Shown: piece by piece, positions 1 through 54,125 of the stretch | Numbering within the stretch: position 1 is the first letter of the stretch | Layout of the letters: every line of letters begins with the position of its first letter | NCBI GenBank assembly: GCA_964438075.1 | Contig: CAYTIW010000007.1 | Location: 1-64,000, forward strand | Reading direction: 5' to 3' | DNA: 64,000 nucleotides | DNA from: an uncultured Planctomycetales bacterium | GTDB taxonomy: Bacteria > Omnitrophota > Gorgyraeia > Zapsychrales > Fredricksoniimonadaceae | Made by a program: the position numbers and the translations under genes | The notes under the pieces: model-generated | Database searches by the model: none | What the model was told of the DNA's origin: nothing | What the model saw: the letters and a program-made list of their open reading frames with translations, nothing else

Positions 1-3000
1 GTGAACTGGGAAGACGTGGAGGCGTTGACGAAGACGGGAGTGAATTGGACGGATATAGAGGTTATAAGCAAGACGGGTATTAACTGGACAGATCTGGAAA
101 ATATTTCCAAAACAGGAATAAATTGGGCTGATTTGAATGCTTTGACTTTGGCAGGGATAAACTGGACCGATATTGAAACAATCTCCAAGACTGGTATCAA
201 TTGGACGGACCTCGAGGTCATGACGGTCGAAGGAGTTAATTGGAGCGATATAAACAAATTAAGTGATACCGGCATAAATTGGGCTGATATCGATGTGCTG
301 AGCAGAACCGGCATTAATTGGTTGGATATTGAATCCATGAGTAATAGAGGAATTAACTGGTACGATCTAAGTGCTTTGTCTACAACAGGTATTAATTGGC
401 TGGATATTGAAGTCATATCTGATACTGGAATTAATTGGATGGATGTGGCGTCTCTATCGAGTTCCGGAATAAATTGGAATGACATGGAGATGTTTTCCAA
501 TGCCGGGATCAATTGGTCCGATCTAGAGTCAATGACCCGGACAGGTGTGAATTGGACCGATCTGCAAATTATGAGCAACTCCGGGATCAACTGGAACGAT
601 TTAGACATAATGAGTACGGTGAGTGTTAACTGGACGGACATAGCTACGTTGTCATCGAGTGGAGTGAATTGGACGGATATCGAAGCGCTTTCCACGACCG
701 GCATAAATTGGTCCGACTTGAACGCCATGACTTTGGCTGGAGTTAATTGGGCAGATATTGAGGCGTTATCCCACACAGGTATCAATTGGTTAGACCTGGG
801 AACGATGACCTTGTCAGGTGTAAACTGGGATGACATCAATTCTATGACGTTAGCCGGGGTTAATTGGAGCGACATTGAAACGATCTCCCAAGCGGGTATT
901 AACTGGACTGATATAGAAACCTGGACCAAAGCGGGCATAAATTGGACAGATTTTGAAACTATGACCGTGTCTGGAATTAATTGGGATGATCTGCAGGAAG
1001 CCACAAATTCGGCGGTAAATTGGACTGATATCCAGGCACTCTCCTTGGCTGGTATCAATTGGATAGATTTTGGTAGTCTGTCTAATGCGGCTATTAACTG
1101 GACGGATTTGGAGGCAATGACGAAAGAAGGTATTAATTGGACGGATGTGAGTGCTTTATCGAATATAGGTATGAACTGGTCTGATCTGCAATCGATGACC
1201 ATCTCCGCTATTAATTGGGCAGATATGGTGACTATGAGTAGTGCTGAAATCAATTGGGAAGACCTGGCGGTCATGAGTTCGACTGGATTGAATTGGGAAG
1301 ATATCGGCATTTTAAGCGCCGCCGGAGTTAATTGGTCGGATCTGGATATCATGAGCAGAAGCGAGATCAACTGGTCTGATCTATCGGTGCTGACTTCTTC
1401 GGCTATCAATTGGATGGACATGGAAGTTCTATCGAAGAGCGGCTTGAACTGGGCCGATCTGGAATCTATGACGGTTGCAGGTGTGAATTGGACGGATATT
1501 GAAGCATTGAGTAAGACTGGGGTTAATTGGATTGATATCGAACGGCTATCAAGCAGTGACATAAATTGGGAGGATATCGAACGCATATCAACTTCATCCA
1601 TAAACTGGACAGATATAGAACAATTATCTGTTTCGGGAATCAATTGGGCCGATATGGCCACCCTGAGCGCATCAGAGATCAACTGGGCAGATATAGCCGC
1701 CATGTCTTCGGAAGCTGTGAATTGGCTGGATTTGGAAGTATTGAGTAAGACGGGTGTAAATTGGGCCGACTGGGAGGCGATGACCGTTGCTGGTGTAAAT
1801 TGGACGGATATGGAAGCAATATCCAAAGCGGCGATCAACTGGACCGATCTGGAGACCATGACCGTCACTGGGGTAAATTGGATGGATCTGGAATCAATTT
1901 CCAAGACGGGTATCAACTGGTCAGATCTAAACGCCATGACCGTCGCTGGGGTGAATTGGACGGACATGGAAGTTTTAAGCAAGTCGGCGGTAAATTGGAT
2001 GGATATGCAGACACTTTCATCAGCAGCCATTAACTGGGTTGATATGAGTGCGATGTCGTTAGCGGGAGTCAATTGGACAGATTTGGAAATTCTGTCAGAA
2101 CAAGGTGTGAATTGGATCGACATTGAAACACTTAGTACGGCAGGTATAAATTGGGAAGATATACAGTCGCTTACAACTTCCTCTATTAACTGGGGGGATA
2201 TTGAAGTTATAAGCAAGACGGGAGTTAATTGGGAAGATATATCCGCCTTGAGTTCAACTGGAGTTAACTGGACCGATCTGCAGTCAATGACGATGGCAGG
2301 TGTAAATTGGACGGATTTGGAGACCATTTCCAAGACGGAAATAAACTGGATGGATTTGTCTGCCATGACCCTGTCCGGGGTCAATTGGAACGATATTTCC
2401 GCTATGAGTGCGAACGGAGTTAACTGGACCGACTTGCAGTCGATGAGCATGGCGGGGGTCAATTGGACAGATATGGAGTACCTTACCACTGCAGAGGTCA
2501 ATTGGTCGGATCTGGGAACTTTGAGCAACGCTGGTATTAATTGGTTGGATATAGATTCTTTAAGCAATACCGGCATTAACTGGTCAGATATCAATATCAT
2601 GTCTGATGCCGGAGTTAATTGGTCGGACATTGCTTACCTTACCTCATCGAATGTGAACTGGACCGACCTCGAATCCCTAACCAAAACCTCTGTAAATTGG
2701 GCTGACCTCGAGTCCATCACCAAGGCAGCTATCAACTGGACCGACCTGGAATCCATGACCAAGGCTTCCGTCAACTGGACCGACCTCGCAGCATTAACAG
2801 TCACGGGTGTTAATTGGGCGGACATAGAAGCCATTTCAAAATCCGCGATCAACTGGACCGATCTACAGTCAATGACGATGGCCGGTGTAAATTGGACCGA
2901 TCTCGGCGCTATGACATTGACGGGAATTAATTGGGACGATATGCAGGTTCTGCATGAAAATGGGGTTAACTGGGACGACTTGGCGTTCATGAGCCGCGCT

Positions 3001-6000
3001 GATGTTAACTGGACCGATCTGAGCGTTCTGACCGATGCCGGGGTCAACTGGACAGACATGGAGACCTTGTCCCACAGTAATCTTAATTGGTCAGATCTGG
3101 AAGTGATGACCAACGCCGCAGTTAATTGGGCCGACTGGTCCTCTATCAGCACCTCGGCTATAAATTGGGGTGATATGAACACACTGACCTCATCAGCTAT
3201 TAATTGGTCCTCTCTGGGAGATATGACCATCAGCGGAATTAACTGGTCTAGTTTCTCTGACATGACCGTGAGCGGGATAAACTGGACCGACATCGGAACC
3301 ATGACCGACTCGGGTGTGAATTGGGAAGACATCGGCATTATGAGCTCTGCCGGAGTGAACTGGACAGATATGGAGAAAATGTCCCTGACAGGGATCAACT
3401 GGAGCGATATCCAGTCCATGAGCGATACGGGTATCAATTGGACCGACCTCGGTGCCATGGCCGCGGCAGGTGTTAATTGGTACGATATGGAATATATGAG
3501 CGATGCCGGTATTAACTGGATGGACATTGAAACCTTGACGAATAGAGGGATCAATTGGGTTGATATCGAATCTTTATCACTAGCCGGTATCAACTGGTCG
3601 GATATTGGTACTATGAGCAGTTCTGGTGTCAACTGGACGGATCTGCAGACTTTAACTGAGACAGGTGTTAACTGGGATGACCTGCAGTCTCTGACTTTTG
3701 CGGGAGTGAATTGGAGCGATCTCGGCTCCTTAAGTACCTCTAGTGTAAATTGGGCTGACCTGGTTTCGATGACTCAAAATGGCGTTAACTGGACCGACTT
3801 GTCGGTGATGTCTGATGCCGGAGTCAATTGGTCCGATTTCTCTGTCTGGACGGCTGCCGGGGTCAACTGGGATGATTTCGCCGTATTGACAGATTCAGGC
3901 ATCAATTGGAACGATTTGGAAATGATGAGCGAATCATCATTGAACTGGGCCGATCTGGCGTCTATGACCCTCAATGGTGTGAATTGGGCTGATCTCTCCA
4001 CATTGAGCGAAGCGGGCGTTAATTGGACCGACCTGTCTGTAATGAACTCTATGGGTGTAAATTGGGCTGACCTGAATGCTATGACAACTGCGTCGGTAAA
4101 TTGGGAAAGTTTGGAAGTGTTGACCAAGACCGATATCAATTGGGATGACCTGCAGACTATGACTGTTTCAGGAGTTAATTGGATGGACCTTGCGACAATG
4201 TCCGATGCCGGTGTGAACTGGATCGATATAGAGTCCATGAGTAAGGCTGATGTTAATTGGACCGGCATCGAATATCTATCCCAGGCAGGCGTGAATTGGG
4301 ATGATCTCTCAGTATTGAGTGACTCAAGTGTGAACTGGATGGATATGGAATACATGAGTAAAGCTGCGGTTAACTGGACCGACCTCATGCAGATGAGCGT
4401 TTCCGGAGTCAATTGGCTGGACCTGGGCGATATGACAGGGGCAGGGGTTAACTGGAGTGATATCAACGCCATGACTTCGGCCGGTGTGAATTGGACTGAA
4501 CTCCAATCCATGTCCGAGACCGGTGTGAATTGGGATGACCTGTCGGCCCTGACTTCGGCAGGTGTTAATTGGGTTGATCTGGAGGCGATGACAGTGTCCG
4601 GGGTGAACTGGACCGACCTCATGCAGATGAGCGTTTCCGGAGTCAATTGGCTGGATCTGGGCGATATGACAGGGGCGGATGTTAACTGGAGCGATATCAG
4701 TACTCTCTCTGCCGCCGGTATTAATTGGGACGACATCACTACCCTCAGTACGGTCGGGGTCAACTGGGCGGACCTTTCGACCATGTCTTCGGCGGGAGTG
4801 AACTGGTATGATGTTGGTTCTTTGTCTTTAGCTGGTGTCAATTGGGAATATTTCGAAGAGTTCTCTACGGCAGGTGTCAATTGGGATGACTTGTCCATAT
4901 TGAGTTCTGCAGGGGTCAACTGGACCGACCTCAATTCGATGACTTCGGCTTCGGTGAATTGGGAAGGTTTGGAGATATTGACCAAGACCGATATCAATTG
5001 GGATAATTTCGGGGCGATGACAACTGCCGGTACGAATTGGGATGCGTTCTCGTTCATGACCACGGCCGGCGTCAACTGGGATGAATTAGCTTCAATAACA
5101 TATACCGGTGTCAACTGGGATGACCTGCAATCGTTGACCGATGCTGGAATTAATTGGAATGACCTGCAGTATATGACCTCTACAGCTGTCAATTGGACCG
5201 GTCTGGAGGCGATTTCAAACACTACTGTGAACTGGGAAGATCTCGCCTCTATGACCTCGGCGGGAGTGAATTGGAATAGTCTGGAATTTATGTCCAGCGC
5301 CGGGATCAACTGGTCCGATTTCGAGTCCTTGACCAATAAGGGTATAAATTGGGATGACATCAGCAAAATGGCCAGTTCGACTATCAATTGGTCAGATTTC
5401 GAGAACCTGACCGAAGCCGGAATAAATTGGGATGGATTAAGTGTCATGTCAGAAACGGCTATCAATTGGGATGACCTTATGGCTTTGAGTGTATCGGGCA
5501 TCAATTGGCTCGATTTTGCATATTTGTCTCAAGCCGGGGTCAATTGGGAAGATATCGAGAGCATGACAGTAGCTGGTGCTAACTGGGAAGACCTGACGAT
5601 GATGGGCAGTGCGGGCATCAATTGGGATGCCCTGTCCTATATGTCCGCCGCCAATGTGAACTGGGATAGTTTGCAATCATTGTCCGTGGCTCAGATGAAC
5701 TGGCAGGGACTGAGTGACATCTCTCTCGCTGGTGTAAATTGGGAGAACATCGGCGATATGTCCAGAGATGGGGTCAATTGGCTTGACGTAGGGGCATTAT
5801 CCGAAGCGGGTATCAACTGGTCGGATTTCACTCAACTGACGAACACCGGTATCAACTGGGAAGATGTAAGGACTTTGAGCGAAACCGGTATTAATTGGAA
5901 CAGCATCGGCGAAATGGCAGAGGCGGGTATCAATTGGCAGGGCATCTACACCTTGAGCTATGCGGACATTAACTGGGAGGGGATCGGTGATATGTCCACC

Positions 6001-6390
6001 AGTGGTATTAATTGGCTGGATATCGGCCTGCTTTCCCAGGCCGGGGTCAACTGGGCTGAGATCGCAACGATGTCGTATGCGGACTTGAATTGGGATGAGA
6101 TAGCGGTAATGACGGATAGCGGGATCAACTGGTATAGCATAGGCGATATGACAGCTTCGCAGATCAACTGGAACGACGTGGCGGTTATTTTTGAATCCAG
6201 TATCAATTGGGATGATCTGAGTGTGATGTCTACCCGAGAGGTGAACTGGGCTGACGTCACTGTTATGACCACTTCCGATGTTAACTGGGGTGACGTGGGT
6301 GGTTTCTCCACGACCGGTGTCAATTGGGCAGATATGGCCAGGATGACCCATTCTAATATAGACTGGAGAGAAATGAGTTATTTCTCTGCC
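1..6390 (+). repeat. In-frame 39-bp (13-codon) tandem repeat array with diverged copies
   Basis: AAYTGG (Asn-Trp) recurs every 39 nt from base 4 to about 6365. Copies differ at many synonymous and non-synonymous positions. A local 26-aa super-period alternates ..[IL]SK[TS]G.. with ..MT[VLM][AS]G.. units. Confidence 0.9.
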
Positions 6391-7083
6391 AATGCCAGGA
6401 CCTTGGTTTCGAATATCCAGGATATATTCGATAATATCGGAAGCGATCCCACAACGACTGACCAAACGACCTTGTTCGGCAAGATCAACCGGATGATCAC
6501 CGCTATCAACGATGTTGATATCAATACGATCGTCAGCATATTGGGAACAGCTGCGGATACCAAAGCTTCCAATACTATCTTTGGAGATCTTAATGCGGTC
6601 CAAGCGGCTATAGGTGATCCCAGCACCAGCAGCACTGTTTTCGAGCAAATGGATGTCATTCAGGACTTTGCCAAGAAAGGCAAGGACAGCGCCGATGCCG
6701 CTTTAGGGGTCACCAAGAATATAGAAAGCGATCTGGGGGTTTTTGGCCAGACCCCGACGACATATGAGAAACTCAGGCAGCTGGAGGATTATATCAAGAA
6801 TATTCAGCAGGCTGCGCTGGAATTGGGACCAAAACAGGAAGCCACGAGCGCGGTTGCCGATCAACTGGTAGAAATGGTACGTCAGATAATCAATGAACAG
6901 GCAAAGCAGGTCGGCTTGGAGACGACCGGGATGATGATAGAGAAACTCTCCAAACAGCAGTCCGAAGATGTCGAAAAGATCAACGAGAAGCTGGAAGAGA
7001 TCGATGCCAAGATCAGGGCTTTGCAGGAAGCTATGAAAGCCGATGACGTCGTTATCAAGACCTGGTTTGAAAGTGAGGAGTAA
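1..7083 (+). CDS. Giant tandem-repeat protein with its N-terminus cut by the window edge (2360 aa visible). About 160 consecutive 13-aa units G-[VI]-N-W-x-D-[LIM]-x-x-[LM]-[ST]-x-x, then a ~250-aa non-repeat helical C-terminal domain. Function unknown.
   Basis: One open frame runs from base 1 to TAA at 7081-7083, and it is already open at base 1, so the true start lies upstream. The translation is almost pure 13-aa periodicity (TGVNWTDIEVISK, TGINWTDLENISK ...) with invariant N-W and a D two residues after W. The last recognisable unit is near aa 2110 (SNIDWREMSYFSA). It is followed by a D/E/K/Q-rich tail ending IKTWFESEE. I recognise no family. Confidence 0.85.
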   Translation: MNWEDVEALTKTGVNWTDIEVISKTGINWTDLENISKTGINWADLNALTLAGINWTDIETISKTGINWTDLEVMTVEGVNWSDINKLSDTGINWADIDVLSRTGINWLDIESMSNRGINWYDLSALSTTGINWLDIEVISDTGINWMDVASLSSSGINWNDMEMFSNAGINWSDLESMTRTGVNWTDLQIMSNSGINWNDLDIMSTVSVNWTDIATLSSSGVNWTDIEALSTTGINWSDLNAMTLAGVNWADIEALSHTGINWLDLGTMTLSGVNWDDINSMTLAGVNWSDIETISQAGINWTDIETWTKAGINWTDFETMTVSGINWDDLQEATNSAVNWTDIQALSLAGINWIDFGSLSNAAINWTDLEAMTKEGINWTDVSALSNIGMNWSDLQSMTISAINWADMVTMSSAEINWEDLAVMSSTGLNWEDIGILSAAGVNWSDLDIMSRSEINWSDLSVLTSSAINWMDMEVLSKSGLNWADLESMTVAGVNWTDIEALSKTGVNWIDIERLSSSDINWEDIERISTSSINWTDIEQLSVSGINWADMATLSASEINWADIAAMSSEAVNWLDLEVLSKTGVNWADWEAMTVAGVNWTDMEAISKAAINWTDLETMTVTGVNWMDLESISKTGINWSDLNAMTVAGVNWTDMEVLSKSAVNWMDMQTLSSAAINWVDMSAMSLAGVNWTDLEILSEQGVNWIDIETLSTAGINWEDIQSLTTSSINWGDIEVISKTGVNWEDISALSSTGVNWTDLQSMTMAGVNWTDLETISKTEINWMDLSAMTLSGVNWNDISAMSANGVNWTDLQSMSMAGVNWTDMEYLTTAEVNWSDLGTLSNAGINWLDIDSLSNTGINWSDINIMSDAGVNWSDIAYLTSSNVNWTDLESLTKTSVNWADLESITKAAINWTDLESMTKASVNWTDLAALTVTGVNWADIEAISKSAINWTDLQSMTMAGVNWTDLGAMTLTGINWDDMQVLHENGVNWDDLAFMSRADVNWTDLSVLTDAGVNWTDMETLSHSNLNWSDLEVMTNAAVNWADWSSISTSAINWGDMNTLTSSAINWSSLGDMTISGINWSSFSDMTVSGINWTDIGTMTDSGVNWEDIGIMSSAGVNWTDMEKMSLTGINWSDIQSMSDTGINWTDLGAMAAAGVNWYDMEYMSDAGINWMDIETLTNRGINWVDIESLSLAGINWSDIGTMSSSGVNWTDLQTLTETGVNWDDLQSLTFAGVNWSDLGSLSTSSVNWADLVSMTQNGVNWTDLSVMSDAGVNWSDFSVWTAAGVNWDDFAVLTDSGINWNDLEMMSESSLNWADLASMTLNGVNWADLSTLSEAGVNWTDLSVMNSMGVNWADLNAMTTASVNWESLEVLTKTDINWDDLQTMTVSGVNWMDLATMSDAGVNWIDIESMSKADVNWTGIEYLSQAGVNWDDLSVLSDSSVNWMDMEYMSKAAVNWTDLMQMSVSGVNWLDLGDMTGAGVNWSDINAMTSAGVNWTELQSMSETGVNWDDLSALTSAGVNWVDLEAMTVSGVNWTDLMQMSVSGVNWLDLGDMTGADVNWSDISTLSAAGINWDDITTLSTVGVNWADLSTMSSAGVNWYDVGSLSLAGVNWEYFEEFSTAGVNWDDLSILSSAGVNWTDLNSMTSASVNWEGLEILTKTDINWDNFGAMTTAGTNWDAFSFMTTAGVNWDELASITYTGVNWDDLQSLTDAGINWNDLQYMTSTAVNWTGLEAISNTTVNWEDLASMTSAGVNWNSLEFMSSAGINWSDFESLTNKGINWDDISKMASSTINWSDFENLTEAGINWDGLSVMSETAINWDDLMALSVSGINWLDFAYLSQAGVNWEDIESMTVAGANWEDLTMMGSAGINWDALSYMSAANVNWDSLQSLSVAQMNWQGLSDISLAGVNWENIGDMSRDGVNWLDVGALSEAGINWSDFTQLTNTGINWEDVRTLSETGINWNSIGEMAEAGINWQGIYTLSYADINWEGIGDMSTSGINWLDIGLLSQAGVNWAEIATMSYADLNWDEIAVMTDSGINWYSIGDMTASQINWNDVAVIFESSINWDDLSVMSTREVNWADVTVMTTSDVNWGDVGGFSTTGVNWADMARMTHSNIDWREMSYFSANARTLVSNIQDIFDNIGSDPTTTDQTTLFGKINRMITAINDVDINTIVSILGTAADTKASNTIFGDLNAVQAAIGDPSTSSTVFEQMDVIQDFAKKGKDSADAALGVTKNIESDLGVFGQTPTTYEKLRQLEDYIKNIQQAALELGPKQEATSAVADQLVEMVRQIINEQAKQVGLETTGMMIEKLSKQQSEDVEKINEKLEEIDAKIRALQEAMKADDVVIKTWFESEE

Positions 7084-7086
7084 GCA

Positions 7087-8433
7087 ATGGTGGGACAGGG
7101 GCGTGGTTTTAAATTCCCGGTCCGGCGGATCGTTGCTCTGTGGTCTTTTGTTCTGTATCTTTTTTTATCCCTGCCTGTCTTCTCGGATGTTGTGATCAAC
7201 GTGTTGGCTGTTAACGGTTCCGACAAGACGATCGAGAAAGATATCCAGTTCAGTCTTCCAGGGGAGATCACGCCCCCTGACCTGGTAGACGCGGCAGGGC
7301 TGAATTTGGACTATAATTTTAATGATTCTGGATACTATTTGCATGGCAAAGTATCTTTGCAGGCCAAGGAAACGAAGACCCTGCGCGTAAAGATACGCGA
7401 TGTTTGGCAATTATCCGACCAGGATGTAAATGCCATCAGGACCGAGATCGAGCAAGGCTTCAAGGAGATGGGCGCCGAACGTAACAAGGATAATGGAGAG
7501 CTATTAAGGAAAAAGCTGGTTGATAAACTGGAGTATATCTTAGCCGACCAAGCCCAGAACGCGGAGAACGTTGAAACACGCATCGATACTTATCGTAATC
7601 ATATCCAGACGCTGAATGAAATAAGGTCCCAAGCCAGGGCCATTGATTATTGGCGTTCGGATGCCAAGGAACCAGAGAACAATAAGACTGTTTATTACAA
7701 AGTTTTGGTTGAGAACCCCGGCGATAAGACCAGGAAGGTGAAGCAGCATCATTATCTGCCGAAAGAGGTCCTGCCGGAATATATTATCGACCGCAAAGGG
7801 TACGAGATACGTTTTGATGACAAAAAAAATCGGCCCTTTCTCTTTAAAGAAGAGGACATAGCTTCGAAGGAAAAAAAAGAAGTAAGTTTTGCTATCAGAG
7901 ACAAATGGTATATTCCTCAGAACGAAATAAGCTATGTACGTGAAAGGGCCAAATATGTAAATGATATCCTGGCCAAGTCCAAATATGTGGAGACCTCGCG
8001 GGGGCTTTTTAATAATATCACTAATTACCTGGACTTGATCGATATGCTGCAGAAGATCGAGCAGCCGGATATTCAGCAACATATCGGGGCTTATCGGCTT
8101 AATGAGGACCGGTTCGAGAAGGCCAAATCTGATCTGGATGATATAGAAAAGCTGCTTTCGCGCCACCGGGCCGAACTGGAGAAGAGCAAGGTCAAGAATG
8201 TCTTGCAGAAGATACAGTCCATGAAATCGCTGGCGCGTGTTTCTCAGGCGATTTTTGACAAGAAACCGACCGTGAATGCCGCTTGGAAGATAATCGGCAG
8301 CGTGCTGATCTTCTTAGGTATTTTTTCTATCATACATTTTGCGACTTGGTTTGCGCGTTCCTCGCGTGAAAGAAAACAGGAGCTTTTAAAAGAGGCAGAG
8401 GCTCAAGCGCATTCGCAGACCAAATCTGGATAA
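7087..8433 (+). CDS. Bitopic or secreted-and-anchored protein with two internally duplicated beta-rich modules and helical spacers. Function unknown.
   Basis: The ATG lies 4 nt after the preceding stop. There is an N-terminal hydrophobic signal/anchor (IVALWSFVLYLFLSLPVFS) and a C-terminal TM (AAWKIIGSVLIFLGIFSIIHFATWF). aa 34-107 and aa 201-274 align to each other (N.G(S)DKT, LP.E, both ending IRD[VK]W). Confidence 0.7.
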   Translation: MVGQGRGFKFPVRRIVALWSFVLYLFLSLPVFSDVVINVLAVNGSDKTIEKDIQFSLPGEITPPDLVDAAGLNLDYNFNDSGYYLHGKVSLQAKETKTLRVKIRDVWQLSDQDVNAIRTEIEQGFKEMGAERNKDNGELLRKKLVDKLEYILADQAQNAENVETRIDTYRNHIQTLNEIRSQARAIDYWRSDAKEPENNKTVYYKVLVENPGDKTRKVKQHHYLPKEVLPEYIIDRKGYEIRFDDKKNRPFLFKEEDIASKEKKEVSFAIRDKWYIPQNEISYVRERAKYVNDILAKSKYVETSRGLFNNITNYLDLIDMLQKIEQPDIQQHIGAYRLNEDRFEKAKSDLDDIEKLLSRHRAELEKSKVKNVLQKIQSMKSLARVSQAIFDKKPTVNAAWKIIGSVLIFLGIFSIIHFATWFARSSRERKQELLKEAEAQAHSQTKSG

Positions 8434-8448: not shown

Positions 8449-9915
8449 ATGAGCATAAAAGTACAGTATACGGAAGTCGGATACGTGAAAGCCATCCGCG
8501 GTTGTATCGTTATCGTGACCGGTTTTGGCAATTGCATTAACGGCCAGTTGATCCGGTTCGGATACGGCACTATCGGGATGGTTGTCGGGTTCACGGAGAC
8601 AGAGGCCCAGGTGCTGATCCTGAAAGAGACAGAAAAGATACGTACCGGCCAGGAGGCGCAAGCTTCGGTTGAACCTCTGGTCACACCCGTTGGAAAGAAT
8701 TTTATCGGCCGTATAGTTAATCCGCTAGCCGAGCCGTTGGATGGGCTGGGGCCGATCGTGCCGGATGATATTGCACCGATCTTTCCGGAATCGCCTCCCA
8801 TCCTGGACCGGCAGCCTTTGAACAAGACCTTGGAAACCGGGATCAAAGTCCTCGATGCCATGATCCCTATCGGGCGCGGTCAGCGGGAATTGATCCTCGG
8901 CGATAAAATGACCGGGAAGACCACCTTTGTTACGGATACGATCGTCAACCAGAAAGATGCCGGGGTAATATGTATTTATTGCGGTATCGGCAAGGCGCGT
9001 TCCAGCCTGGCAAAAGTGGTGCAGCTTTTCAAGGACCGCGGATGTTTCGATTACAGCATAATAGTTTCCGCCTCGGCATCCTCACCGCCTGGCCAGCAGT
9101 ATCTGGCCCCGTACGTGGCCTGTTCATTGGGGGAGTATTTCATGCGTCGCGGACAGGATGTTTTTATCGGATTCGACGATTTCACTAAGCATGCCTGGTC
9201 TTACCGGGAGATATCCTTACTATTGGGACGGCCGCCGGGGCGTGATTCTTATCCGGGAGACATATTTTATCTTCACTCCAAAATGATCGAACGCGCCTGT
9301 TTCCTTTCCAAGGAGAAAGGCGGAGGGTCCATGACTTTCTTCCCGATCGTTGAGATACTCGAAGGGGATCTTACCGCCTTCGTGCCCTCGAACCTGGTCT
9401 CCATGACAGACGGTCAGATATACCTCAGCGCCCAGCTTTTCGGTGAAGGGCAGAAACCGGCCCTGGATCTAGGCTTGTCCGTTTCCCGGGTTGGATCCAA
9501 GGTCCAATGGCCGGCTATCAAGGCGTTGTCCGGGCCTCTGCGTTTGGAGTACCTGCAGTACCGCGAATTGCTGCGGATTTCCAAGTTAAAGACCTCCGGT
9601 CAGTCTGAGGACATGAAGCAGAAATTGAAACGCGGTTCGATACTGACCGCCATCCTCCGGCAGTACAAGGATTCGCCGGTGTGCCAGGAAATGCAGGTGT
9701 TGATATTCTACGCCTTTAACAAGAAGTATCTGAACGATTTCACAATCGAGCAGGTCGACGCTTTTCAGAATAGCTGTCTGGAGTATACCAAGAACGTGAA
9801 GCCGGAATTTTTGACGCTATTGAGAGAGCGCCGCAAGTTGGACCCCGAGATCGAGAAATTGATGGATGAAGTTATAAATGGCCTGTCAGCGCAAGTAACT
9901 GGGAAGGGGCATTAA
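8449..9915 (+). CDS. atpA: F1-ATPase alpha-subunit homolog (divergent)
   Basis: Walker A GDKMTGKTT; LLGRPPGRDSYPGDIFYLHSKMIERA (canonical [24 protein letters not shown]); GGGSMTFFPIVE; SVSRVGSKVQ. The resemblance to alpha runs the full length. Confidence 0.85.
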   Translation: MSIKVQYTEVGYVKAIRGCIVIVTGFGNCINGQLIRFGYGTIGMVVGFTETEAQVLILKETEKIRTGQEAQASVEPLVTPVGKNFIGRIVNPLAEPLDGLGPIVPDDIAPIFPESPPILDRQPLNKTLETGIKVLDAMIPIGRGQRELILGDKMTGKTTFVTDTIVNQKDAGVICIYCGIGKARSSLAKVVQLFKDRGCFDYSIIVSASASSPPGQQYLAPYVACSLGEYFMRRGQDVFIGFDDFTKHAWSYREISLLLGRPPGRDSYPGDIFYLHSKMIERACFLSKEKGGGSMTFFPIVEILEGDLTAFVPSNLVSMTDGQIYLSAQLFGEGQKPALDLGLSVSRVGSKVQWPAIKALSGPLRLEYLQYRELLRISKLKTSGQSEDMKQKLKRGSILTAILRQYKDSPVCQEMQVLIFYAFNKKYLNDFTIEQVDAFQNSCLEYTKNVKPEFLTLLRERRKLDPEIEKLMDEVINGLSAQVTGKGH

Positions 9916-9978: not shown

Positions 9979-10248
9979 ATGCCACCATTATATAAGGGGA
10001 ATTTCCGTTGCGTGATCTTGAGCGCCAAGCGTTTGGTATTTGAGGCTGAGATAAACAGCCTTTTTATTACCGGTGATAGGGGAGAGTATGAGCTTTTGGC
10101 ATATCATTATCCTCTTATCGGTATCGTTAAAGGCGATATTGTGATCAATTGGGAAAAACGTTTGCCGGTAAGGGGCGGGGTGGTGCGGTTCTTCGCTAAT
10201 GAATGCAATGTCATGATCGAAGAAGCCCCAGCTCAGAAAACCAACTGA
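9979..10248 (+). CDS. atpC: F1 epsilon-subunit-like protein with the beta-sandwich domain only
   Basis: 89 aa. GEYELLAYHYPLIGIVKGDIVI ... VRGGVVRFFANECNVMIEEA matches the epsilon N-terminal domain pattern (EG.GIL.GH.P....L..G.+.+ ... VSGGF.EV..N.VTILA). The C-terminal two-helix hairpin is absent. Confidence 0.6.
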   Translation: MPPLYKGNFRCVILSAKRLVFEAEINSLFITGDRGEYELLAYHYPLIGIVKGDIVINWEKRLPVRGGVVRFFANECNVMIEEAPAQKTN

Positions 10249-10485: not shown

Positions 10486-10716
10486 ATGCAATTTCAGTAT
10501 TGGCCCGAAGGATTGATATTTATAGCCCTGTTCACGTTTATTATCGGGTTCCCCTGTGTCATGGTGGCTATATTGGGAACAAAACTTATTAATTATATAG
10601 GTCAGTATCCGTCCAAGTGTGCCAGGCGTCAGATGATAGCGTGTTTGCAGCTTTTTGTGATTGAGCTGATCTCGTTCGCGATCTTGGCGCTTTTTTATCA
10701 TATCTTTTCCGATTAA
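10486..10716 (+). CDS. Second, divergent c-subunit-like two-helix hairpin protein
   Basis: 76 aa, starting 3 nt after the c-subunit stop. Two hydrophobic helices, loop GQYPSK, and a helix-2 Glu in LFVIELISFA at a position analogous to the c-subunit ion-binding carboxylate. Confidence 0.45.
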   Translation: MQFQYWPEGLIFIALFTFIIGFPCVMVAILGTKLINYIGQYPSKCARRQMIACLQLFVIELISFAILALFYHIFSD

Positions 10717-10730: not shown

Positions 10731-11486
10731 ATGACGTTCGAATTGATCGTTGGATTCTTCATACTAAATGCCCTTGTTACAGGGGCTATTATTCTGGCCC
10801 TGCACTGGGTCTTTGTTTCCAGTGTCGACGGAGCCAAACAAAGGCTGGAACGCGATGCCGAGTCTGCCCGGGCCCGCGAGGCGGAACTTAACCGCAAGAT
10901 CAGGCAGGCTGATGAAGAGCTAACGGCCCGGAAGAAAGAACTCGACCTTGTCGAACAGCGGATGAAAGGCCAGCTTGAGCAAGAGACCGAAAAACACCGG
11001 GAAGACCTGGTAAACAAGGCCCGTAGCGAGGCTGAAGAGATCATCGCCAAAGCACAGATAGCGGCTGAAGGTTTGCGCAAGGAGGCTGAGAAACAGATGG
11101 AGATAAAGATCATCGATTATTCGACCAGGATACTTAACGAGATCTTTTCTAGAAAGGCCAAAGCGGCTTTTGAAAAAGATCTGGTCGAAGAGTTCGTTTC
11201 CCAACTTAAAGAGATCGATATGTCCAAGATCAGCCTCGAGATCAAGAAGGCCGAAGTGGTTACCGCCTGCGGGATATCCGATGAGGACCTGAAACGTATT
11301 GCGGATATGGTCAGGGTAAAGACCGGCCGCGACATAGCTTTGGAGACCAAGGTGTCGGATGAGTTTGTGGCCGGGGTGGTGGTCAAGTTCGGCAGCCTGC
11401 ATTTGGACGGAAGCGTGCGGAACGCCATTCGGGAATCGGCGTTAGCCCTAAAAGGCGAAGTTGATAAGGGGAATTTACGAAAGTAA
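10731..11486 (+). CDS. atpF: Peripheral-stalk b-delta fusion-like protein
   Basis: An N-terminal TM (IVGFFILNALVTGAIILALHWVF) is followed by a long E/K/R/A-rich coiled coil typical of subunit b. The C-terminus DEFVAGVVVKFGSLHLDGSVRNAIRE resembles the delta/OSCP C-terminal signature (GG..+++GD...DGSVR..L). Confidence 0.6.
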   Translation: MTFELIVGFFILNALVTGAIILALHWVFVSSVDGAKQRLERDAESARAREAELNRKIRQADEELTARKKELDLVEQRMKGQLEQETEKHREDLVNKARSEAEEIIAKAQIAAEGLRKEAEKQMEIKIIDYSTRILNEIFSRKAKAAFEKDLVEEFVSQLKEIDMSKISLEIKKAEVVTACGISDEDLKRIADMVRVKTGRDIALETKVSDEFVAGVVVKFGSLHLDGSVRNAIRESALALKGEVDKGNLRK

Positions 11487-11498: not shown

Positions 11499-13791
<2,293 letters not shown>

Positions 13792-13793: not shown

Positions 13794-15539
13794 ATGTTGA
13801 AGTCAGCGGTAAATAAAGCAGTATGCGAAGCGCTTCTCAAAAGTACTCTTTTGGACGAGCCTAACCTCCAGAAATATGCCGCTGAGGCCCATCGGCTGAA
13901 CCAGAAGATATCCTTTTACCTCGTCCAGCAAGGCATTTTGAAGACCCCCGCCGTTCTCCGGGCCTTGGCAGAACATTTCCACTTGGATATCGTCAATCTG
14001 AAGACGGTCAATGTCGACCGTATGGCCATCGACCGGGTCCCGGTCAAGTTCGCTTCCTATTACCGATTCATGCCCTTGGCCGTGGACGGGAACCGTTTGA
14101 CAGCTGCTGTTTCGGAACCGCTGGATATACATAATCAGGACGACATACGCGCGCATTTAGGCCTGGAACCGCGTTTTGTCCTGGCCTCGCCGTGGGATAT
14201 CGATGAAGCTCTGAAGCGTTATTACGGCCTGGCTTCCGAGACCATTGACCAGATATTGACCAAGGACCCGCAGAAACGGTCGGCCTTTTCCGAAGACCGT
14301 TCTTCCAAGATAGAGGATATCGAGAAGCAGAGCGAAGACCCGTCGGTCACTAAACTGGTCAATCAGATCATTTTGGAGGCCTACCAGAAGCGGGCTACGG
14401 ATATCCACATCGAACCCTACCGTAACCGGGTCCGTTTCCGCTATCGTATCGACGGGGTTCTGCTCGATGCCAATCTCCCTCCGGAAGCAAAGCATTTTCT
14501 CCTGGCCATAATATCGCGTATAAAGATCATGGCCAACCTGACCATCACCGAGAAGCGGCTTCCCCAGGACGGGAGCGCGGTGGTACGCGTGAAGGAACAG
14601 GCCCTGGACCTGCGCGTTTCAACCATCCCCACCCAGCACGGGGAGAGCATGGTCATACGACTTTTGCCGACCACTACCACGCTGCTGGACCTGGAGAAGC
14701 TAGGGTTTAATGCCGATAATGCCAGCAAGTTCAGGGAACTGATACGCCATCCGCATGGCGTTATTTTTGTTACGGGGCCTACCGGTAGCGGAAAGACCAC
14801 CACCTTGTACGCCTGCCTGAACGAGATCAACGACCCGACCCGCAAGATCATCACTATCGAGGACCCGATAGAGTATGAGATGGAGGGGATCACTCAGATA
14901 CAGATCAACTCCGGCATCGATTTCGGTTTCGCGACCGGCTTGCGCAGCATCCTGCGGCACGATCCGGACATCCTCATGGTGGGAGAAGTGCGGGACCGGG
15001 AGACGGCCGACATCGCTATTCGTACTGCCCTGACCGGCCATTTGGTGTTCTCCTCGCTGCACACTAATGATGCCGCAACCGGGGTGACACGCTTGGTTGA
15101 TATGGGGGTGGAACCTTATCTGGTGGCCTCGAGCGTGCAAGCTTTCATTGCCCAGCGTTTGGTGAGGGTCATATGCCCGCAGTGCAAAGAGGAGGACCGC
15201 GAGCCGCTGATGGAGATAAGGAAGGAGATAGCCAGGAGTTTAGGTTTCTCCTCGCTGGATGAAATAAAATTCTTCAAGGGCCGGGGCTGTGACCAATGCA
15301 ACAATACGGGTTATTATGGCCGTACGGCTATTTATGAAATATTGGAGATAACCGAAGCCATCCGCTCCGCGATCCTGGACAAGCCGAGGGCGGAAGAGAT
15401 AAAACGCATAGCCGTACACGGAGGGATGCGCACGCTGCGGCAGGACGGCTGGAAGAACGTTATAGCCGGTGTTACCACTCCGGCCGAGGTCTTGAACGTA
15501 ACGCTTAAGGAGACGGCTGGGGCATCCTCCGCGGTCTAG
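13794..15539 (+). CDS. gspE: Type II secretion / type IV pilus assembly ATPase (GspE/PilB family)
   Basis: The ATG lies 2 nt after the atpD stop. N-terminal T2SSE_N-like domain, Walker A GPTGSGKTT, Walker B/Asp box DILMVGEVRD, and a tetracysteine CPQC...CDQC. Confidence 0.9.
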   Translation: MLKSAVNKAVCEALLKSTLLDEPNLQKYAAEAHRLNQKISFYLVQQGILKTPAVLRALAEHFHLDIVNLKTVNVDRMAIDRVPVKFASYYRFMPLAVDGNRLTAAVSEPLDIHNQDDIRAHLGLEPRFVLASPWDIDEALKRYYGLASETIDQILTKDPQKRSAFSEDRSSKIEDIEKQSEDPSVTKLVNQIILEAYQKRATDIHIEPYRNRVRFRYRIDGVLLDANLPPEAKHFLLAIISRIKIMANLTITEKRLPQDGSAVVRVKEQALDLRVSTIPTQHGESMVIRLLPTTTTLLDLEKLGFNADNASKFRELIRHPHGVIFVTGPTGSGKTTTLYACLNEINDPTRKIITIEDPIEYEMEGITQIQINSGIDFGFATGLRSILRHDPDILMVGEVRDRETADIAIRTALTGHLVFSSLHTNDAATGVTRLVDMGVEPYLVASSVQAFIAQRLVRVICPQCKEEDREPLMEIRKEIARSLGFSSLDEIKFFKGRGCDQCNNTGYYGRTAIYEILEITEAIRSAILDKPRAEEIKRIAVHGGMRTLRQDGWKNVIAGVTTPAEVLNVTLKETAGASSAV

Positions 15540-15634
15540 TGCCTTTTTGCCCATTTTTACTTCAGCCCCCTGTCCTGGTGTTTTGCATCGTTGGGATCGT
15601 TCGATGACTCTAAATAATGAAAGGGGCCGGTCCC

Positions 15635-16846
15635 ATGCCGGTTTTTGCCTATAAAGCCAAAAAAGACAATGCTGAGACGGTCCTGGGCGATATCGTGGCC
15701 CGGGATGCCAACGAGGCTATCGAGATGGTCAGCCGTCGCGGTCTCTTGCCGGTCGCCGTTGAAGAGAAGGAAGGAGAGGGTGCGGCATCTGTATTGGGAT
15801 TGTCTGCCGGAAATGTCCGTCGAAAAGACATCATGGTGTTCACGGGGCAGTTGGTGAGCTTGCTGAAGGCCGGGGTCCCTCTTCTGCAATCGATAGAACT
15901 GTTGTCAAGGAAGACACGCAACGCCAAACTAGCCTATGTTCTGTCCGATATCGCGCTGAACATACGCAACGGCAAAACTTTCTCCGCAGGACTGGAGGAT
16001 CATCCGGATATCTTTGAGCCCCTGTATACGGCTATGGCCCGGGCGGGTGAGGAAGGCGGGAGCATTCGGGAAATGCTGGCTGAGATGGCTGATTATTATC
16101 GCAAGCAGGAAGATATCGCCCTAAAGGTCCGCGGCGCGCTGACTTACCCGGCGGTCATGTTGGTAGCCGGTATCGGCACGGTCATTTTTGTGCTTACTTT
16201 CGTGCTGCCTAAGATCAAGGTGCTTTTCAAGGATATGCATACGGCGCTCCCCTTGCCAACGGTGATAGTACTCAAGTTGAGCGAGATGGTGCAGAATGGG
16301 TGGCCCGTGATCCTGGCTATTGCGGTCCTGGGCGCTTTATCATGGCAATCCCTCCGTCGCATGGCAGCTTTCCGGAGGGCCGTTGGCCAGGTCATTTTTG
16401 CCTTGCCATGGGTAAGGGAGTTTGCCTTGAAAATAGAGATGCAGAGGTTCACCAGGACCATGAGCTTCCTGCTGGAAGGCGGCATCCCTATATTGCGGGC
16501 TTTGGAGCTGGCCATCCCGACACTGTCAAATGAAACTTTGAAGGATGACCTGGGCAAGTGCAAAGATATGATAGCGGACGGCGCCACCTTTGGGGACACG
16601 CTAAGACGTTCCGTTCTCATACCTGATATAGTGCCGTCATTGGTAGCGGTAGGGGAAGAGGCCGGCGCGCTCGCACAATCACTCAGGGATATAGCGGAGA
16701 CTTACGAGCAGGAGATCGGCGAAAGCACCAAGGCCATGTCGACCCTGCTGGAACCGCTCCTGATTCTCCTGGTGGGATCGGTGATAGCCTTCATTGTTTT
16801 TGCTATGTTGATGCCTATATTTCAGATGGATATTTTCGCCCAATGA
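15635..16846 (+). CDS. gspF: Type II secretion / T4P platform protein (GspF/PilC family)
   Basis: I chose the MPVFAYKAKK start (ATG 15635, AAAGGGG about 9 nt upstream) over the ORF-track start at 15617. It has the typical GspF layout with two repeated cytoplasmic domains and three TM segments, and ends LLMPIFQMD. Confidence 0.88.
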   Translation: MPVFAYKAKKDNAETVLGDIVARDANEAIEMVSRRGLLPVAVEEKEGEGAASVLGLSAGNVRRKDIMVFTGQLVSLLKAGVPLLQSIELLSRKTRNAKLAYVLSDIALNIRNGKTFSAGLEDHPDIFEPLYTAMARAGEEGGSIREMLAEMADYYRKQEDIALKVRGALTYPAVMLVAGIGTVIFVLTFVLPKIKVLFKDMHTALPLPTVIVLKLSEMVQNGWPVILAIAVLGALSWQSLRRMAAFRRAVGQVIFALPWVREFALKIEMQRFTRTMSFLLEGGIPILRALELAIPTLSNETLKDDLGKCKDMIADGATFGDTLRRSVLIPDIVPSLVAVGEEAGALAQSLRDIAETYEQEIGESTKAMSTLLEPLLILLVGSVIAFIVFAMLMPIFQMDIFAQ

Positions 16847-17685
16847 CCCTGACATGGAAGTTCATAGCGCCGGTGGCCGTGTTATGGTTAGTTATGGTTA
16901 TGGGCCCCGCGCGGGCCGTTGAAGAGCCATTTCGTGAACTTAAGGGCGATCATTTTATTGTCAAATATTTGCTTGAGGATGAACGCAGCCGGGCTGTCCA
17001 GATATTAACCCGCGCGGAGTTATATTATAAGAGGGTGGCTGAAAGTATCGGTTATAACCGTTACCAGGAATACTGGACTTGGGAACGGCGCGTGACCGTA
17101 GTTCTTTATCCTGACCAACTGTCCTACGCCAAGTTCACCGGACAGCCACAGTGGTCCAAGGGGTATGCCAGCCGGGATTCCAAACTGTTCAGGACCAAGG
17201 TGATCGTTTCCTATGATGGCCAGCCTGAATTCCTGGAGGAGATATTGCCGCATGAGATCGCACATTTGATCCTGTGGGATTTTCTCGGATTTACCCGTAA
17301 GGTGCCGATATGGTTCGAGGAGGGCTTGGCCCAGCGGGAGGAGGATGGCAAGAGAGCCGTTGTGCAGCAGGCCATGAAGGAAGTTGTCATTTCCGGGAAC
17401 GATATCCCTTTTGCCACCTTCCATGGACTGGATGTGGGCAGGATCACGGACCCGGTGCAGGTTTCATTGTTCTATGCCCAAAGTCTCTCGGTGGTGGAGT
17501 TCATGATCGGTAAATACGGCCGTGATGCTTTCAGGAACTTTTGTCGTGAGATACGGGAAGGCCGGGCGTTCGAGGAGGCTTTGCCCCGCGCCTACCCGGC
17601 CATCTTTCGGACGGTGGATGATCTGGGATCGAAATGGAAGAATTATATGCAGAATGAAGTTGTTTCTTCAGGAGGCGGGCTATGA
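16843..17685 (+). CDS. Secreted HExxH zinc metallopeptidase-like protein (Peptidase_MA_2-like)
   Basis: ATGA-type 4-nt overlaps with both gspF (upstream) and gspG (downstream). Signal peptide VAVLWLVMVMGPARA, HEIAHL, then WFEEGLAQ as the third-ligand Glu context. Confidence 0.6.
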   Translation: MTLTWKFIAPVAVLWLVMVMGPARAVEEPFRELKGDHFIVKYLLEDERSRAVQILTRAELYYKRVAESIGYNRYQEYWTWERRVTVVLYPDQLSYAKFTGQPQWSKGYASRDSKLFRTKVIVSYDGQPEFLEEILPHEIAHLILWDFLGFTRKVPIWFEEGLAQREEDGKRAVVQQAMKEVVISGNDIPFATFHGLDVGRITDPVQVSLFYAQSLSVVEFMIGKYGRDAFRNFCREIREGRAFEEALPRAYPAIFRTVDDLGSKWKNYMQNEVVSSGGGL

Positions 17686-18089
17686 ATAACAGCAGAGGGT
17701 TCACGCTGGCAGAGATAATGCTGGTGGTCATCATAATAGGGGCCTTGGCGGCCATGGTCGTCCCCCGCTTGTCCGGCCGGTCCGAACAGGCCCGTATCGC
17801 CGTAGCCAAGGCGGATATAAAGACCAACATCCCTACCGCTTTAAAAATGTACGAGTTGGACAACGGAATGTATCCAACTACAGAGCAGGGTCTCCAGGCT
17901 CTCCGGGAAAAACCATCGTCCGCCCCGGCCCCCAGGTATTGGCACGGGCCTTATTTGGAACAGGATCCGGTGGACCCTTGGGGTAATCCTTACTTTTACG
18001 AATCACCGGGGACCCATCGCTCAGATTACGACTTATATTCCAAAGGCAAGGACCAGAATTCTCCCGATGGTTACATCACCAACTGGTAA
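17682..18089 (+). CDS. gspG: Major type II secretion pseudopilin GspG
   Basis: Prepilin leader MNNSRG|FTLAEIMLVVIIIGALAAMVVP with Glu+5. The GspG signature is LDNGMYPTTEQGLQAL...GPYL...DPWGNPYFYESPG...YDLYSKGKD. Confidence 0.9.
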   Translation: MNNSRGFTLAEIMLVVIIIGALAAMVVPRLSGRSEQARIAVAKADIKTNIPTALKMYELDNGMYPTTEQGLQALREKPSSAPAPRYWHGPYLEQDPVDPWGNPYFYESPGTHRSDYDLYSKGKDQNSPDGYITNW

Positions 18090-18528
18090 CAGGACCGCCC
18101 ACCGCCGAAGCTTTTTCCCGGACTCAAGGGTGGGGCTGACTTTCGTCGAGGTCATGGTCACCTCGGTAATACTATCGGCGGGGCTGGTGGCGATTTACCG
18201 GTCTTTCTTCATCGCAGCTGACGTCGTGCAGCATCTTTCCAACCGGCTTTACGCCCTGAATCTGCTGGAAAACAAGATCACAACGATAGAAAGGGATTTC
18301 CGGTCGCGGAAAGATTTCGATATCGGCCCCTTGACTGAAGACGCCGTGGTGAATAATCATCCCGTGGTTTTTCAGTATCGAGTGGAACTAAAGCCGGTGG
18401 GCAGTCTTCTGACAGTGTTCCAGCTCGACATTTCCTTGTCCTGGGAGGAAAGGGGAAGGTTTCGGAGCGTTTCCCGTTCGGCCTATTTTTCCGGTGTGAC
18501 CCCCTTGGAAAAGGGGGATGCCTCATGA
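18067..18528 (+). CDS. Minor pseudopilin (GspH/GspI-like)
   Basis: A basic leader is followed by G|LTFVEVMVTSVILSAGLVAI (Glu+5 present). The start is uncertain, with a 23-nt overlap with gspG. An in-frame GTG at 18130 would leave almost no leader. Confidence 0.55.
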   Translation: MVTSPTGNRTAHRRSFFPDSRVGLTFVEVMVTSVILSAGLVAIYRSFFIAADVVQHLSNRLYALNLLENKITTIERDFRSRKDFDIGPLTEDAVVNNHPVVFQYRVELKPVGSLLTVFQLDISLSWEERGRFRSVSRSAYFSGVTPLEKGDAS

Positions 18529-19148: not shown

Positions 19149-19149
19149 T

Positions 19150-20178: not shown

Positions 20179-20244
20179 ATCAGTTTTGGGTTGATTGACG
20201 GAAAAAGCTTAGTCTATAATGTAGCCATCAAATGCGGAGAAAAC

Positions 20245-21744: not shown

Positions 21745-21755
21745 GGAGTCCCGCC

Positions 21756-22391: not shown

Positions 22392-22425
22392 TCTTTTAGC
22401 CGCCGGCGTTTCGCCTGTCCCCATT

Positions 22426-54088: not shown

Positions 54089-54125
54089 GGGAAATCATTA
54101 TTCCAGGAGGGCAAATACAACTTTA

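Follow-up and report, generated by a model that had tools for sequence, protein, structure and literature searches.

The window analyzed here is the whole 64,000-nucleotide (nt) stretch at positions 1–64,000 of the forward strand of contig CAYTIW010000007.1, from an organism of the Omnitrophota. It opens inside the gene of a giant protein made of tandem 13-residue units, each built around an Asn-Trp pair, which we call the NW protein. Positions 1–7083 of the forward strand form a single uninterrupted open reading frame (ORF) of 2,360 codons plus TAA, the 5′ end of which is open at the window start. The frame comprises a long repeat array, the stalk, and a C-terminal non-repeat part, the foot. 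It is followed on the same strand by the gene of a predicted bitopic membrane protein (orf448), an F-type ATPase operon and a set of genes resembling those of type II secretion systems (T2SS) and type IV pili (T4P) (Table 1). The Omnitrophota are abundant, uncultured and ultra-small bacteria, which are thought to be predators or parasites of other microbes.

A strictly periodic array of 13-residue units

The NW dipeptide occurs 163 times in the window array. Each of the 162 intervals between neighbouring dipeptides measures exactly 13 residues, so the array contains no indels. A partial unit (residues 1–12), 162 full NW units and a terminal degenerate unit (NIDWREMSYFSAN) give 164 units in total, the last of which ends at residue 2131 (nt 6393). 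The consensus, with counts out of 163, is G(113)-[VI](154)-N(162)-W(163)-x-D(139)-[LIMFV]-x-x-[ML](139)-[ST](156)-x-[AST](145). Gly is nearly confined to unit position 1, Pro and Cys are both absent (0 each) from the 2,119 repeat residues, and large hydrophobic residues at fixed positions account for about 29% of the repeat. The array is also acidic, with 13.9% Asp and Glu versus 1.8% Lys and Arg. It is not a product of chance, because the composition leads one to expect about 18 NW dipeptides, without regular spacing. An earlier reading made from this DNA alone (the sequence-only reading) had described about 160 tandem units with a strict period, and the count agrees with it. The same reading took an alternation of SK[TS]G and MT[VL]AG units as a hint of a two-unit coil. 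This alternation exists locally, in the first 20 units only, where the mean identity is 7.06 at lag 2 versus 6.21 at lag 1. As a general two-unit period of 26 residues it does not hold, with array-wide mean identities of 6.02, 5.89 and 6.08 at lags of one, two and three units, respectively.

Regarding the age of the array, the mean identity between units is 54% at the DNA level and 43% at the protein level. Third codon positions are near saturation, with an identity of 0.39 versus 0.69 at second positions, and the invariant sites use all four Gly codons and both of the codons for Asn and for Asp. Third-position saturation and full synonymous codon use show that the array is old and is kept by purifying selection on the protein, as had been proposed. 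Tandem Repeats Finder detects a few local, younger duplications, for example at 4368–4793 (period 234 nt, 79% matches). In a comparison with the closest relatives, only about the last ten units can be matched position by position; thus, the central array turns over while the unit is conserved. A pseudogene is ruled out by the zero stops in 7,080 nt together with the clear purifying selection.

The sequon N-W-[ST], that is N-x-S/T on the invariant Asn, is present in 64 of the 163 units. Three long ORFs run antisense to the repeat region (2634–3632, 3774–5504 and 5797–6648, all on the minus strand; 283–576 residues); they are shadows of the periodic codon usage of the repeat and not genes.

Membership and distribution of the family

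A search with the last repeats and the C-terminus as the query returned 21 homologues, nearly all of them fragments, with E values from 1.9e-129 down to 1e-29; the named matches are five Candidatus Omnitrophota and one weak match labelled Elusimicrobia. A sixteen-unit profile searched against 1.84 billion representative proteins gave 515 matches at E ≤ 1e-3 and 33 at E ≤ 1e-30, and the named genuine members of the NW family are all Omnitrophota. A genome scan with one genome per species found 43 loci, all in metagenome-assembled genomes (MAGs) of Omnitrophota or in MAGs mislabelled 'uncultured Planctomycetales'. Judged by its named members, the family defined by NW repeats and a helical foot is restricted to this one phylum. 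Those matches outside the Omnitrophota that were inspected have unrelated repeats whose period happens to be 13 residues or similar; they include P0030, a Paenibacillus LysM protein (P0085), an M56 peptidase (P0088), a TPR-like protein (P0078) and a 6xMyc-tagged flagellin in the PDB (P and L numbers are our handles for proteins and loci).

The unit had been described as one that could not be assigned to a known family, and the searches bear this out: none of the matches to Pfam, NCBIfam, PHROGs or PDB sequences is credible for the repeat protein, and a full-text literature search on the repeat motif strings gave nothing relevant. Two Pfam candidates were rejected. Lysostaphin_N (PF25533) reaches 78 bits as a sum with 0 passing stretches, and 17.3 bits on P0018; it shares the period and no motif. 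Ntox33 (PF15533) scores 28.0 bits on a 130-residue piece, against a cutoff of 28.4, and has 0 passing stretches on the whole protein, with the match lying inside the array. Both scores are sums of periodic partial matches. Precomputed Lysostaphin_N labels also sit on the family members P0010 and P0250 and in the gene table of L044, and these should be treated as false positives arising from the shared 13-residue period.

Strict periodicity extends to the family. In 24 orthologues, 2,733 of the 2,792 NW spacings (98%) are 13 residues, 35 are 26 or 39 and 24 are true indels; a spacing of 26 or 39 is best read as a unit that lost its NW. The foot of the window protein is homologous to that of the other members, and the alignment ends in a conserved VVxKTWFESEE. 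Two variants of the family theme were also seen. In the distant members L039 (187–2844) and L041, GINW alternates with GINF or GINY, giving a 26-residue super-repeat that is followed by the same helical foot. In a second architecture of 800–1,400 residues (P0035, P0036, P0038, P0042, P0048, P0049 and P0081), about 10–15 NW units form a spacer; a signal peptide and an N-terminal GLUG-motif/peptidase_M26_N-like domain precede the units and Ig-like repeats follow at the C-terminus. The sole named protein of this second group, P0081, is from Omnitrophota.

Head, neck, stalk and foot

The window begins within the array, and all 15 contigs that carry an identical orf448 (short-read assemblies of the same organism) break within the repeats. 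Because the frame runs into the window start without a break and orthologues are as long as 2,809, 3,832 and 8,087 residues, the window ORF very probably represents the C-terminal 2,360 residues of a longer protein of the Omnitrophota family that continues upstream, in line with the sequence-only reading. The orthologues supply the missing N-terminal architecture, which was read from P0008, P0014, P0018, P0020, P0022, P0026 and P0251 (fragments and complete members). They begin with a Sec-type signal peptide and then Q-[FY]-[TS]-G-G. Next comes a variable head, annotated as LamG, carboxypeptidase-regulatory-like or Ig_Rha78A_N; in the complete 2,809-residue P0022, the head contains a region that looks like a β-helix by eye. 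Between head and stalk lie a conserved Ig-like 'neck', a β-rich module and a few KTDTINW adaptor units. About a dozen units into the array, after a unit ending in YM[TS]G[SA]G, a conserved 10-residue stutter (VNWDETINWDNL) interrupts the period in P0008, P0009, P0014, P0018, P0022, P0026 and P0251.

The stalk varies from about 25 to more than 275 units in complete orthologues. Complete members measure 868, 900, 1,292 and 2,809 residues, gene calls reach 3,832 residues on a 190-kb contig and 8,087 residues on a 1.34-Mb contig, and in three loci the ORF is still open past 10 kb and 273–275 units. The last units before the foot are conserved in the orthologues, as if they were the cap units of a solenoid. 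The foot itself is a C-terminal four-helix bundle in the complete orthologues, and the non-repeat, helical C-terminus of the window protein had been recognized as such by the sequence-only reading. This end may have the docking or anchoring role that was proposed there.

Fold of the 13-residue unit

Two AlphaFold models were compared. The first covers 16 units, with a 10-row internal alignment of non-overlapping blocks (confidence score pLDDT 46.7), and the second covers the last seven units and the C-terminus, with 11 orthologues (pLDDT 35–40 in the repeats). In both models, as assigned by DSSP, every unit forms one helix from W4 to about position 12 and zero strands are present, at low confidence. 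These helix boundaries appear to coincide with those read from the motif by established helix-capping rules. By these rules, the N-cap would be Asn3, the helix would start at Trp4, and Asp6 at N3 would be the partner in the capping box. The side chains of [VI]2 (N′) and [LIM]7 (N4) could form a hydrophobic staple, and Gly1 as C′, [ML]10 as C3 and [VI]2 as C″ would form a Schellman motif. A Foldseek search with the 16-unit model gave weak matches to designed helical repeats only (TM-score ≤ 0.36) and was treated as uninformative.

Covariation was calculated from 2,942 three-unit windows of 30 proteins with the score MIp. The top pairs are positions 8–12 (i+4, 0.199) and 6–9 (i+3, 0.190), followed by 9–12, 5–8, 5–9 and 7–11, and the i+2 pairs are weak. 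For example, in the window units and 29 orthologues, replacement of Asp6 by Ser or Asn is paired with an acidic residue at position 9: S6–D9 is observed 101 times versus 12.8 expected and N6–E9 68 times versus 9.4, and D6–D9 is depleted (12 versus 154), a compensatory shift. The hydrophobic moment is 0.27 at 100°, 0.55 at 120° and 0.10–0.15, its minimum, at 160–180°. Taken together, the low-confidence AlphaFold helices, the capping motifs, the i+3/i+4 covariation and the hydrophobic moment favour a unit that is probably one short capped α-helix. The capped helices would stack into a regular, very acidic α-solenoid rod, a geometry that would allow substitutions and not insertions and would in this way explain the exact period. 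The sequence-only reading had argued that a helical hairpin needs more than 13 residues; this premise stands, and the option that it missed is one short helix per unit.

Four points weigh against the single capped helix. With a repeat pLDDT of 35–56 across both runs, the three-dimensional arrangement is not established. Part of the covariation could stem from duplicated 'types' of units and not from physical contacts. The hydrophobic moment is maximal at 120° and not at 100°. Finally, Gly occupies position 8 in 27% of the orthologue units, with a high frequency in some lineages, which is awkward in the middle of a nine-residue helix.

The fold originally proposed was a narrow β-solenoid with 13 residues per coil, or a 26-residue coil of two units, similar to the β-helix of insect antifreeze proteins; ladders of Asn and Trp, or bound Ca2+, might stabilize such a solenoid. 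A strict, indel-free period and an invariant Asn and aromatic residue are typical of solenoid ladders, and a very acidic array would suit Ca2+ binding. The NW/NF or NW/NY alternation of the distant paralogue and a weak lag-2 correlation at positions 11 and 12 also agree with this fold. However, neither AlphaFold run predicts a strand, amphipathicity of the β type is minimal, as the moment at 160–180° indicates, and the covariation is dominated by i+3 and i+4 and not by i+2. The array lacks Cys and Thr ladders as well as a global 26-residue period, and a coil of 13 residues would be too narrow to hold four bulky hydrophobic residues in its interior. On this balance, the β-solenoid is unlikely.

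An array without a fixed fold, acting as an elastic or intrinsically disordered acidic spacer, would match the low AlphaFold confidence over the repeats, the low sequence complexity and the high content of Ser, Thr, Asn and Asp. A disordered spacer would tolerate indels, yet 98% of the orthologue spacings are exact, and the lack of indels points to a regular solenoid more than to a flexible spacer. Large hydrophobic residues at fixed positions, invariant Trp and Asn and purifying selection are also at odds with disorder, which we consider highly improbable.

We know of no described 13-residue unit that carries an N-W-x-D cap. The leucine-rich repeat variant (LRV) is a repeat of about 24 residues with two short helices. 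The likeness to the capped-helix reading lies in very short helices of about 12 residues each, stacked in a superhelix without β-sheet, but in Pfam the NW repeat matches neither LRV nor any other family of helical repeats. The 12-residue coils of the Tenebrio antifreeze β-helix and the 13-residue repeats of the lysostaphin propeptide (PF25533) have a similar or identical period, although the Tenebrio coils have disulfides and Thr ladders, both of which are absent from the NW array. An exact 13-residue unit over thousands of copies, probably with one capped helix each, would rank among the shortest regular helical repeats, and the NW unit is a good target for structure determination and design.

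Downstream genes and their conservation

The features of the locus are listed in Table 1. The Shine–Dalgarno sequence of orf448 lies inside the last codons of the giant gene, and together with the 3-nt gap this suggests that the two genes are translationally coupled. The downstream genes are separated by gaps of 3 to about 60 nt, and terminator-like sites in the region are no commoner than in shuffled sequences.

Table 1. Features of the NW locus in window coordinates (aa, amino acids; TM, transmembrane segment)
Feature	Position	Strand	Remarks
NW-repeat stalk	1..6393	+	164 units of 13 residues, aa 1–2131; open at window 5′ end
C-terminal non-repeat foot	6394..7083	+	aa 2132–2360, 229 aa plus TAA; helical; ends ...VVIKTWFESEE
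GAGGAG Shine–Dalgarno, TAA, 3 nt, ATG of orf448	7073..7089	+	inside last codons of giant gene; sequence read directly
orf448	7087..8433	+	N-terminal signal/TM (aa 14–43), C-terminal TM (aa 395–424), short basic tail; from hydropathy
F-type ATPase alpha	8449..9915	+	TIGR00962, 521.6 bits (cutoff 484.45)
Epsilon-like, 89 aa, N-terminal domain only	9979..10248	+	weak NCBIfam matches; ATP-synt_DE_N in orthologues
c subunit, 72 aa	10264..10482	+	two TM, Glu in TM2; PF00137, 31.3 bits (cutoff 24)
orf76	10486..10716	+	two-TM hairpin, Glu in second TM; conserved in operon; family unassigned
b/delta fusion	10731..11486	+	N-terminal TM, coiled coil, OSCP domain
gamma subunit	11499..12356	+	PF00231, 100.4 bits
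beta subunit	12367..13791	+	TIGR01039, 537.9 bits (cutoff 462.85)
GspE/PilB-type assembly ATPase	13794..15539	+	with MshEN domain
GspF/PilC platform protein	15617..16846	+
Secreted MA-clan zinc peptidase	16843..17685	+	HEIAH motif; conserved in cluster
Three pseudopilin/pilin genes (GspG-like, one unassigned, GspJ-like)	17682..19148	+	leaders of G-F-T-L-A-E type; T2SSG, N_methyl, T2SSJ
GspK-like, PilM/PilN fusion, GspM/PilO-like, TPR protein	19123..23232	+

The product of orf448, the conserved partner gene of the NW gene, is predicted to expose about 350 residues outside the membrane, partly coiled-coil-like by sequence inspection. Its 79 homologues measure 416–459 residues, apart from one 268-residue fragment, and those that are named are Omnitrophota, except one labelled Elusimicrobia; orf448 matches no family in Pfam or NCBIfam.

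The ATPase genes follow an unusual order: alpha, epsilon, c, the two-TM orf76, a b/delta fusion, gamma and beta. Of the features of a canonical F1Fo operon, alpha, beta, gamma and c are recognizable and subunit a is not encoded with them. Neither the scanned ORFs of the window nor the gene tables for L044, L045, L046, L049 and L050 contain an ATP-synt_A (PF00119) gene; the flanks covered at L044, L045 and L049 are about 10 kb, and a gene elsewhere in the genome is possible. A disguised subunit a in orf448 was rejected, as this protein has two hydrophobic segments only and no family match. Likewise, a second c subunit in orf76 is unsupported, with no BLASTP similarity to the c subunit and no Pfam match. 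In L045, a second OSCP (delta) gene fragment (1–165) lies 10 kb upstream of the cluster, which suggests that this genome carries two sets of F-type ATPase genes.

The order NW gene, orf448, alpha, epsilon, c, orf76, b/delta, gamma, beta, gspE and gspF is found in 38 of the 43 loci; three of the five without the full order are cut by contig ends, which leaves 38 of 40 informative loci. It is kept even at 22–30% foot identity and holds around complete members too. Immediately upstream of complete NW genes lie AAA_16 (GspA-like), T2SS-C, secretin and TPR genes, as in L044 and L045. In L039 and L041, a CBS-domain gene and a divergent M16-like peptidase gene (by eye) follow the NW gene in place of orf448 and the ATPase.

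Several neighbouring genes touch on regulation and processing. In orthologous clusters, a PilZ domain stands free or is fused to GspE/PilB right after beta (L044 25427–26047, L045 21516–23738 and L050 13991–16162), which hints that the apparatus might be under the control of cyclic di-GMP; the GspE of the window has an MshEN domain and no PilZ. In many loci, the gene of the MA-clan zinc peptidase is kept between gspF and the pseudopilin genes, and its product could be the enzyme that processes the fibre or the pilins. Near the cluster in the window lie genes for an STT3-like oligosaccharyltransferase, two PMT_2 glycosyltransferases and one GT2 (23288–24949; 24961–25767; 26087–28618, minus strand; 41760–43205, minus strand), and in L044 and L045 a GT2/DUF2304/methyltransferase/GT2 cassette lies upstream of the secretin gene. 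The fibre or the pilins may be glycosylated.

Comparison with known systems

Fibrillar adhesins such as SasG, the Rib-domain proteins and RTX adhesins such as MpIBP consist of a head, a stalk and an anchor, with stalk units that are β-sandwich domains of 80–110 residues. The NW protein shares their design of a variable head, a repetitive stalk whose copy number sets the reach and a conserved anchor, and in both cases the copy number varies between relatives. However, fibrillar adhesins are exported by sortase or type I secretion pathways, whereas the NW protein apparently uses Sec and a T2SS-like machine, and its unit is 13 residues long and probably a single helix. The NW protein is thus a new repeat type within the known head–stalk–anchor kind of surface fibre, and the ATPase and pilus parts of its locus have already been published.

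The latter were described by Seymour et al. (2023; PMC10066038) as a 'symbiotic' F-type ATPase/type IVa pilus locus of Omnitrophota, for which the authors proposed, by analogy with Mycoplasma, that it helps the bacteria to attach to host cells or to move on them. The locus studied here is the same, with F-type alpha and beta beside GspE/PilB, GspF/PilC, pilins and PilMNO. The F-type genes lie within 10 kb of the T4P/T2SS genes; in the window, beta ends at 13791 and gspE starts at 13794. The NW gene and orf448, which are conserved upstream members of the cluster, are not mentioned in the retrieved passages of that paper. The authors group alpha with the Mycoplasma type-2/3 ATPases, whereas our NCBIfam scores, which are scores and not a phylogeny, favour ordinary atpA and atpD: alpha reaches 521.6 bits for canonical atpA versus 391 for MMOB1660. 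The cutoffs of the NCBIfam models for the Mycoplasma types are not reached (score/cutoff 391.1/600 and 414.4/850 for glide_MMOB1660/1670, and 283.2/520 and 380.2/570 for MSC_0619/0618).

Other giant proteins of Omnitrophota, the Archaeovorins and dockerin-type giants, have been reported in two preprints (West-Roberts et al. 2023, 10.1101/2023.11.21.568195; 10.64898/2026.06.07.730766). They are likewise very long, repeat-rich and presumed extracellular, are encoded beside T2SS-like loci and are proposed to serve prey adhesion; however, they contain numerous TM helices, SecA DEAD domains and repeats of the HEAT, TPR, dockerin or TSP3 type. None of these features occurs in the 2,360 residues of the window protein; TM helices, SecA DEAD-like domains and HEAT/TPR repeats are also absent from the fragments P0008, P0014, P0018 and P0020, and no Archaeovorin-type Pfam domain is recorded for the complete P0022. 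A keyword search did not find the 13-residue NW unit in the retrieved text of either preprint.

Regarding the ATPase, the gliding machinery of Mycoplasma mobile combines the F1-like ATPase MMOB1660/1670 with the giant surface proteins Gli349, Gli521 and Gli123. Both systems pair an F1-type ATPase with giant surface proteins, and M. mobile is host-associated and genome-reduced. The NW protein has no sequence relation to the Gli proteins, and the Omnitrophota operon differs in that it retains c, epsilon and b/delta subunits. To our knowledge, M. mobile does not carry its Gli genes next to those of the ATPase.

Possible functions of the NW protein

From the architecture and its setting, we give an even chance to the reading that the NW protein is a secreted surface fibre, composed of head, stalk and foot, for contact with a host or prey. 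The protein would be exported by Sec and would then pass outward via the neighbouring T2SS/T4P-like machine. The foot would hold it at the cell, probably through orf448, and the number of units would determine how far out the head is displayed, so that the protein would act as a tether or adhesin toward host or prey cells, with the variable head serving as a binding or enzymatic module. The family would then be a phylum-specific fibre family of up to 8,087 residues, encoded ahead of the 'symbiotic' F-type ATPase/pilus locus. This locus gains a candidate extracellular working part, the NW protein, and a candidate membrane adaptor, orf448, and the idea of attachment or motility becomes a set of testable interactions between foot and orf448 and between orf448 and the ATPase.

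Three observations tell against such a fibre. The export route, the surface location, the anchoring by orf448 and the adhesive function are all read from architecture and gene neighbourhood only. The N-terminus of the window protein itself was not recovered, as the contigs of the same organism break within the repeats. In addition, the genes of the distant members L039 and L041 do not adjoin orf448 or the ATPase.

The NW protein could instead belong to the envelope or coat and not be an adhesin. It would then be a periplasmic or outer-surface scaffold, ruler or matrix ('coat' as in Velamenicoccus), or mere cargo of the T2SS, and its adjacency to the ATPase would be historical. A signal peptide is present and an outer-membrane anchor is not recognizable, an acidic, repetitive and length-variable nature is also typical of matrix proteins, and glycosylation genes lie in the neighbourhood. 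However, lectin- or enzyme-like heads that vary, carried by a neck, stalk and foot that do not, resemble a device for presentation, and an 8,087-residue rod could hardly be periplasmic in an ultra-small cell. Synteny held at 22–30% foot identity also argues against a historical accident. A coat component is therefore rather doubtful.

What the surface fibre does not explain is its co-inheritance with the ATPase. This would be accounted for if the fibre were mechanically coupled to the ATPase, with rotation of an F1/c-ring without subunit a transmitted via orf448 to the foot, so that it moves, tensions or reels the fibre. Such coupling would be a functional analogue of M. mobile gliding, with its F1-like ATPase and giant surface proteins. 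Throughout the phylum, the ATPase operon has been inherited together with orf448 and the NW gene, and the genes are closely spaced; moreover, no ATP-synt_A is found in the window ORFs scanned or in the flanks of about 10 kb of L044, L045 and L049. Seymour et al. group alpha with Mycoplasma type-2/3 ATPases and propose motility on hosts (PMC10066038). However, by their NCBIfam scores alpha and beta qualify as ordinary atpA and atpD but not as members of the Mycoplasma gliding families, subunit a could be encoded elsewhere in the genome, and two family members lack the ATPase neighbourhood. We consider the mechanical coupling improbable.

The most far-reaching version joins all of these parts. 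The NW fibre, orf448 and the a-less ATPase would be one machine, in which a rotary ATPase that has lost ion translocation drives or tensions a single-polypeptide fibre of up to about 8,000 residues for catching, holding or moving on hosts, and the 13-residue capped-helix solenoid would be a new fold class. We regard this as a long shot; if true, it would be a new kind of prokaryotic surface motor.

Composition of the remaining window

Farther downstream, positions 52001–56000 of the window have a GC content of 0.395 versus about 0.52 elsewhere, and contain genes for an HAD hydrolase, an NAD-kinase-like protein and QueH as well as unassigned genes. This low-GC stretch may have been acquired separately.

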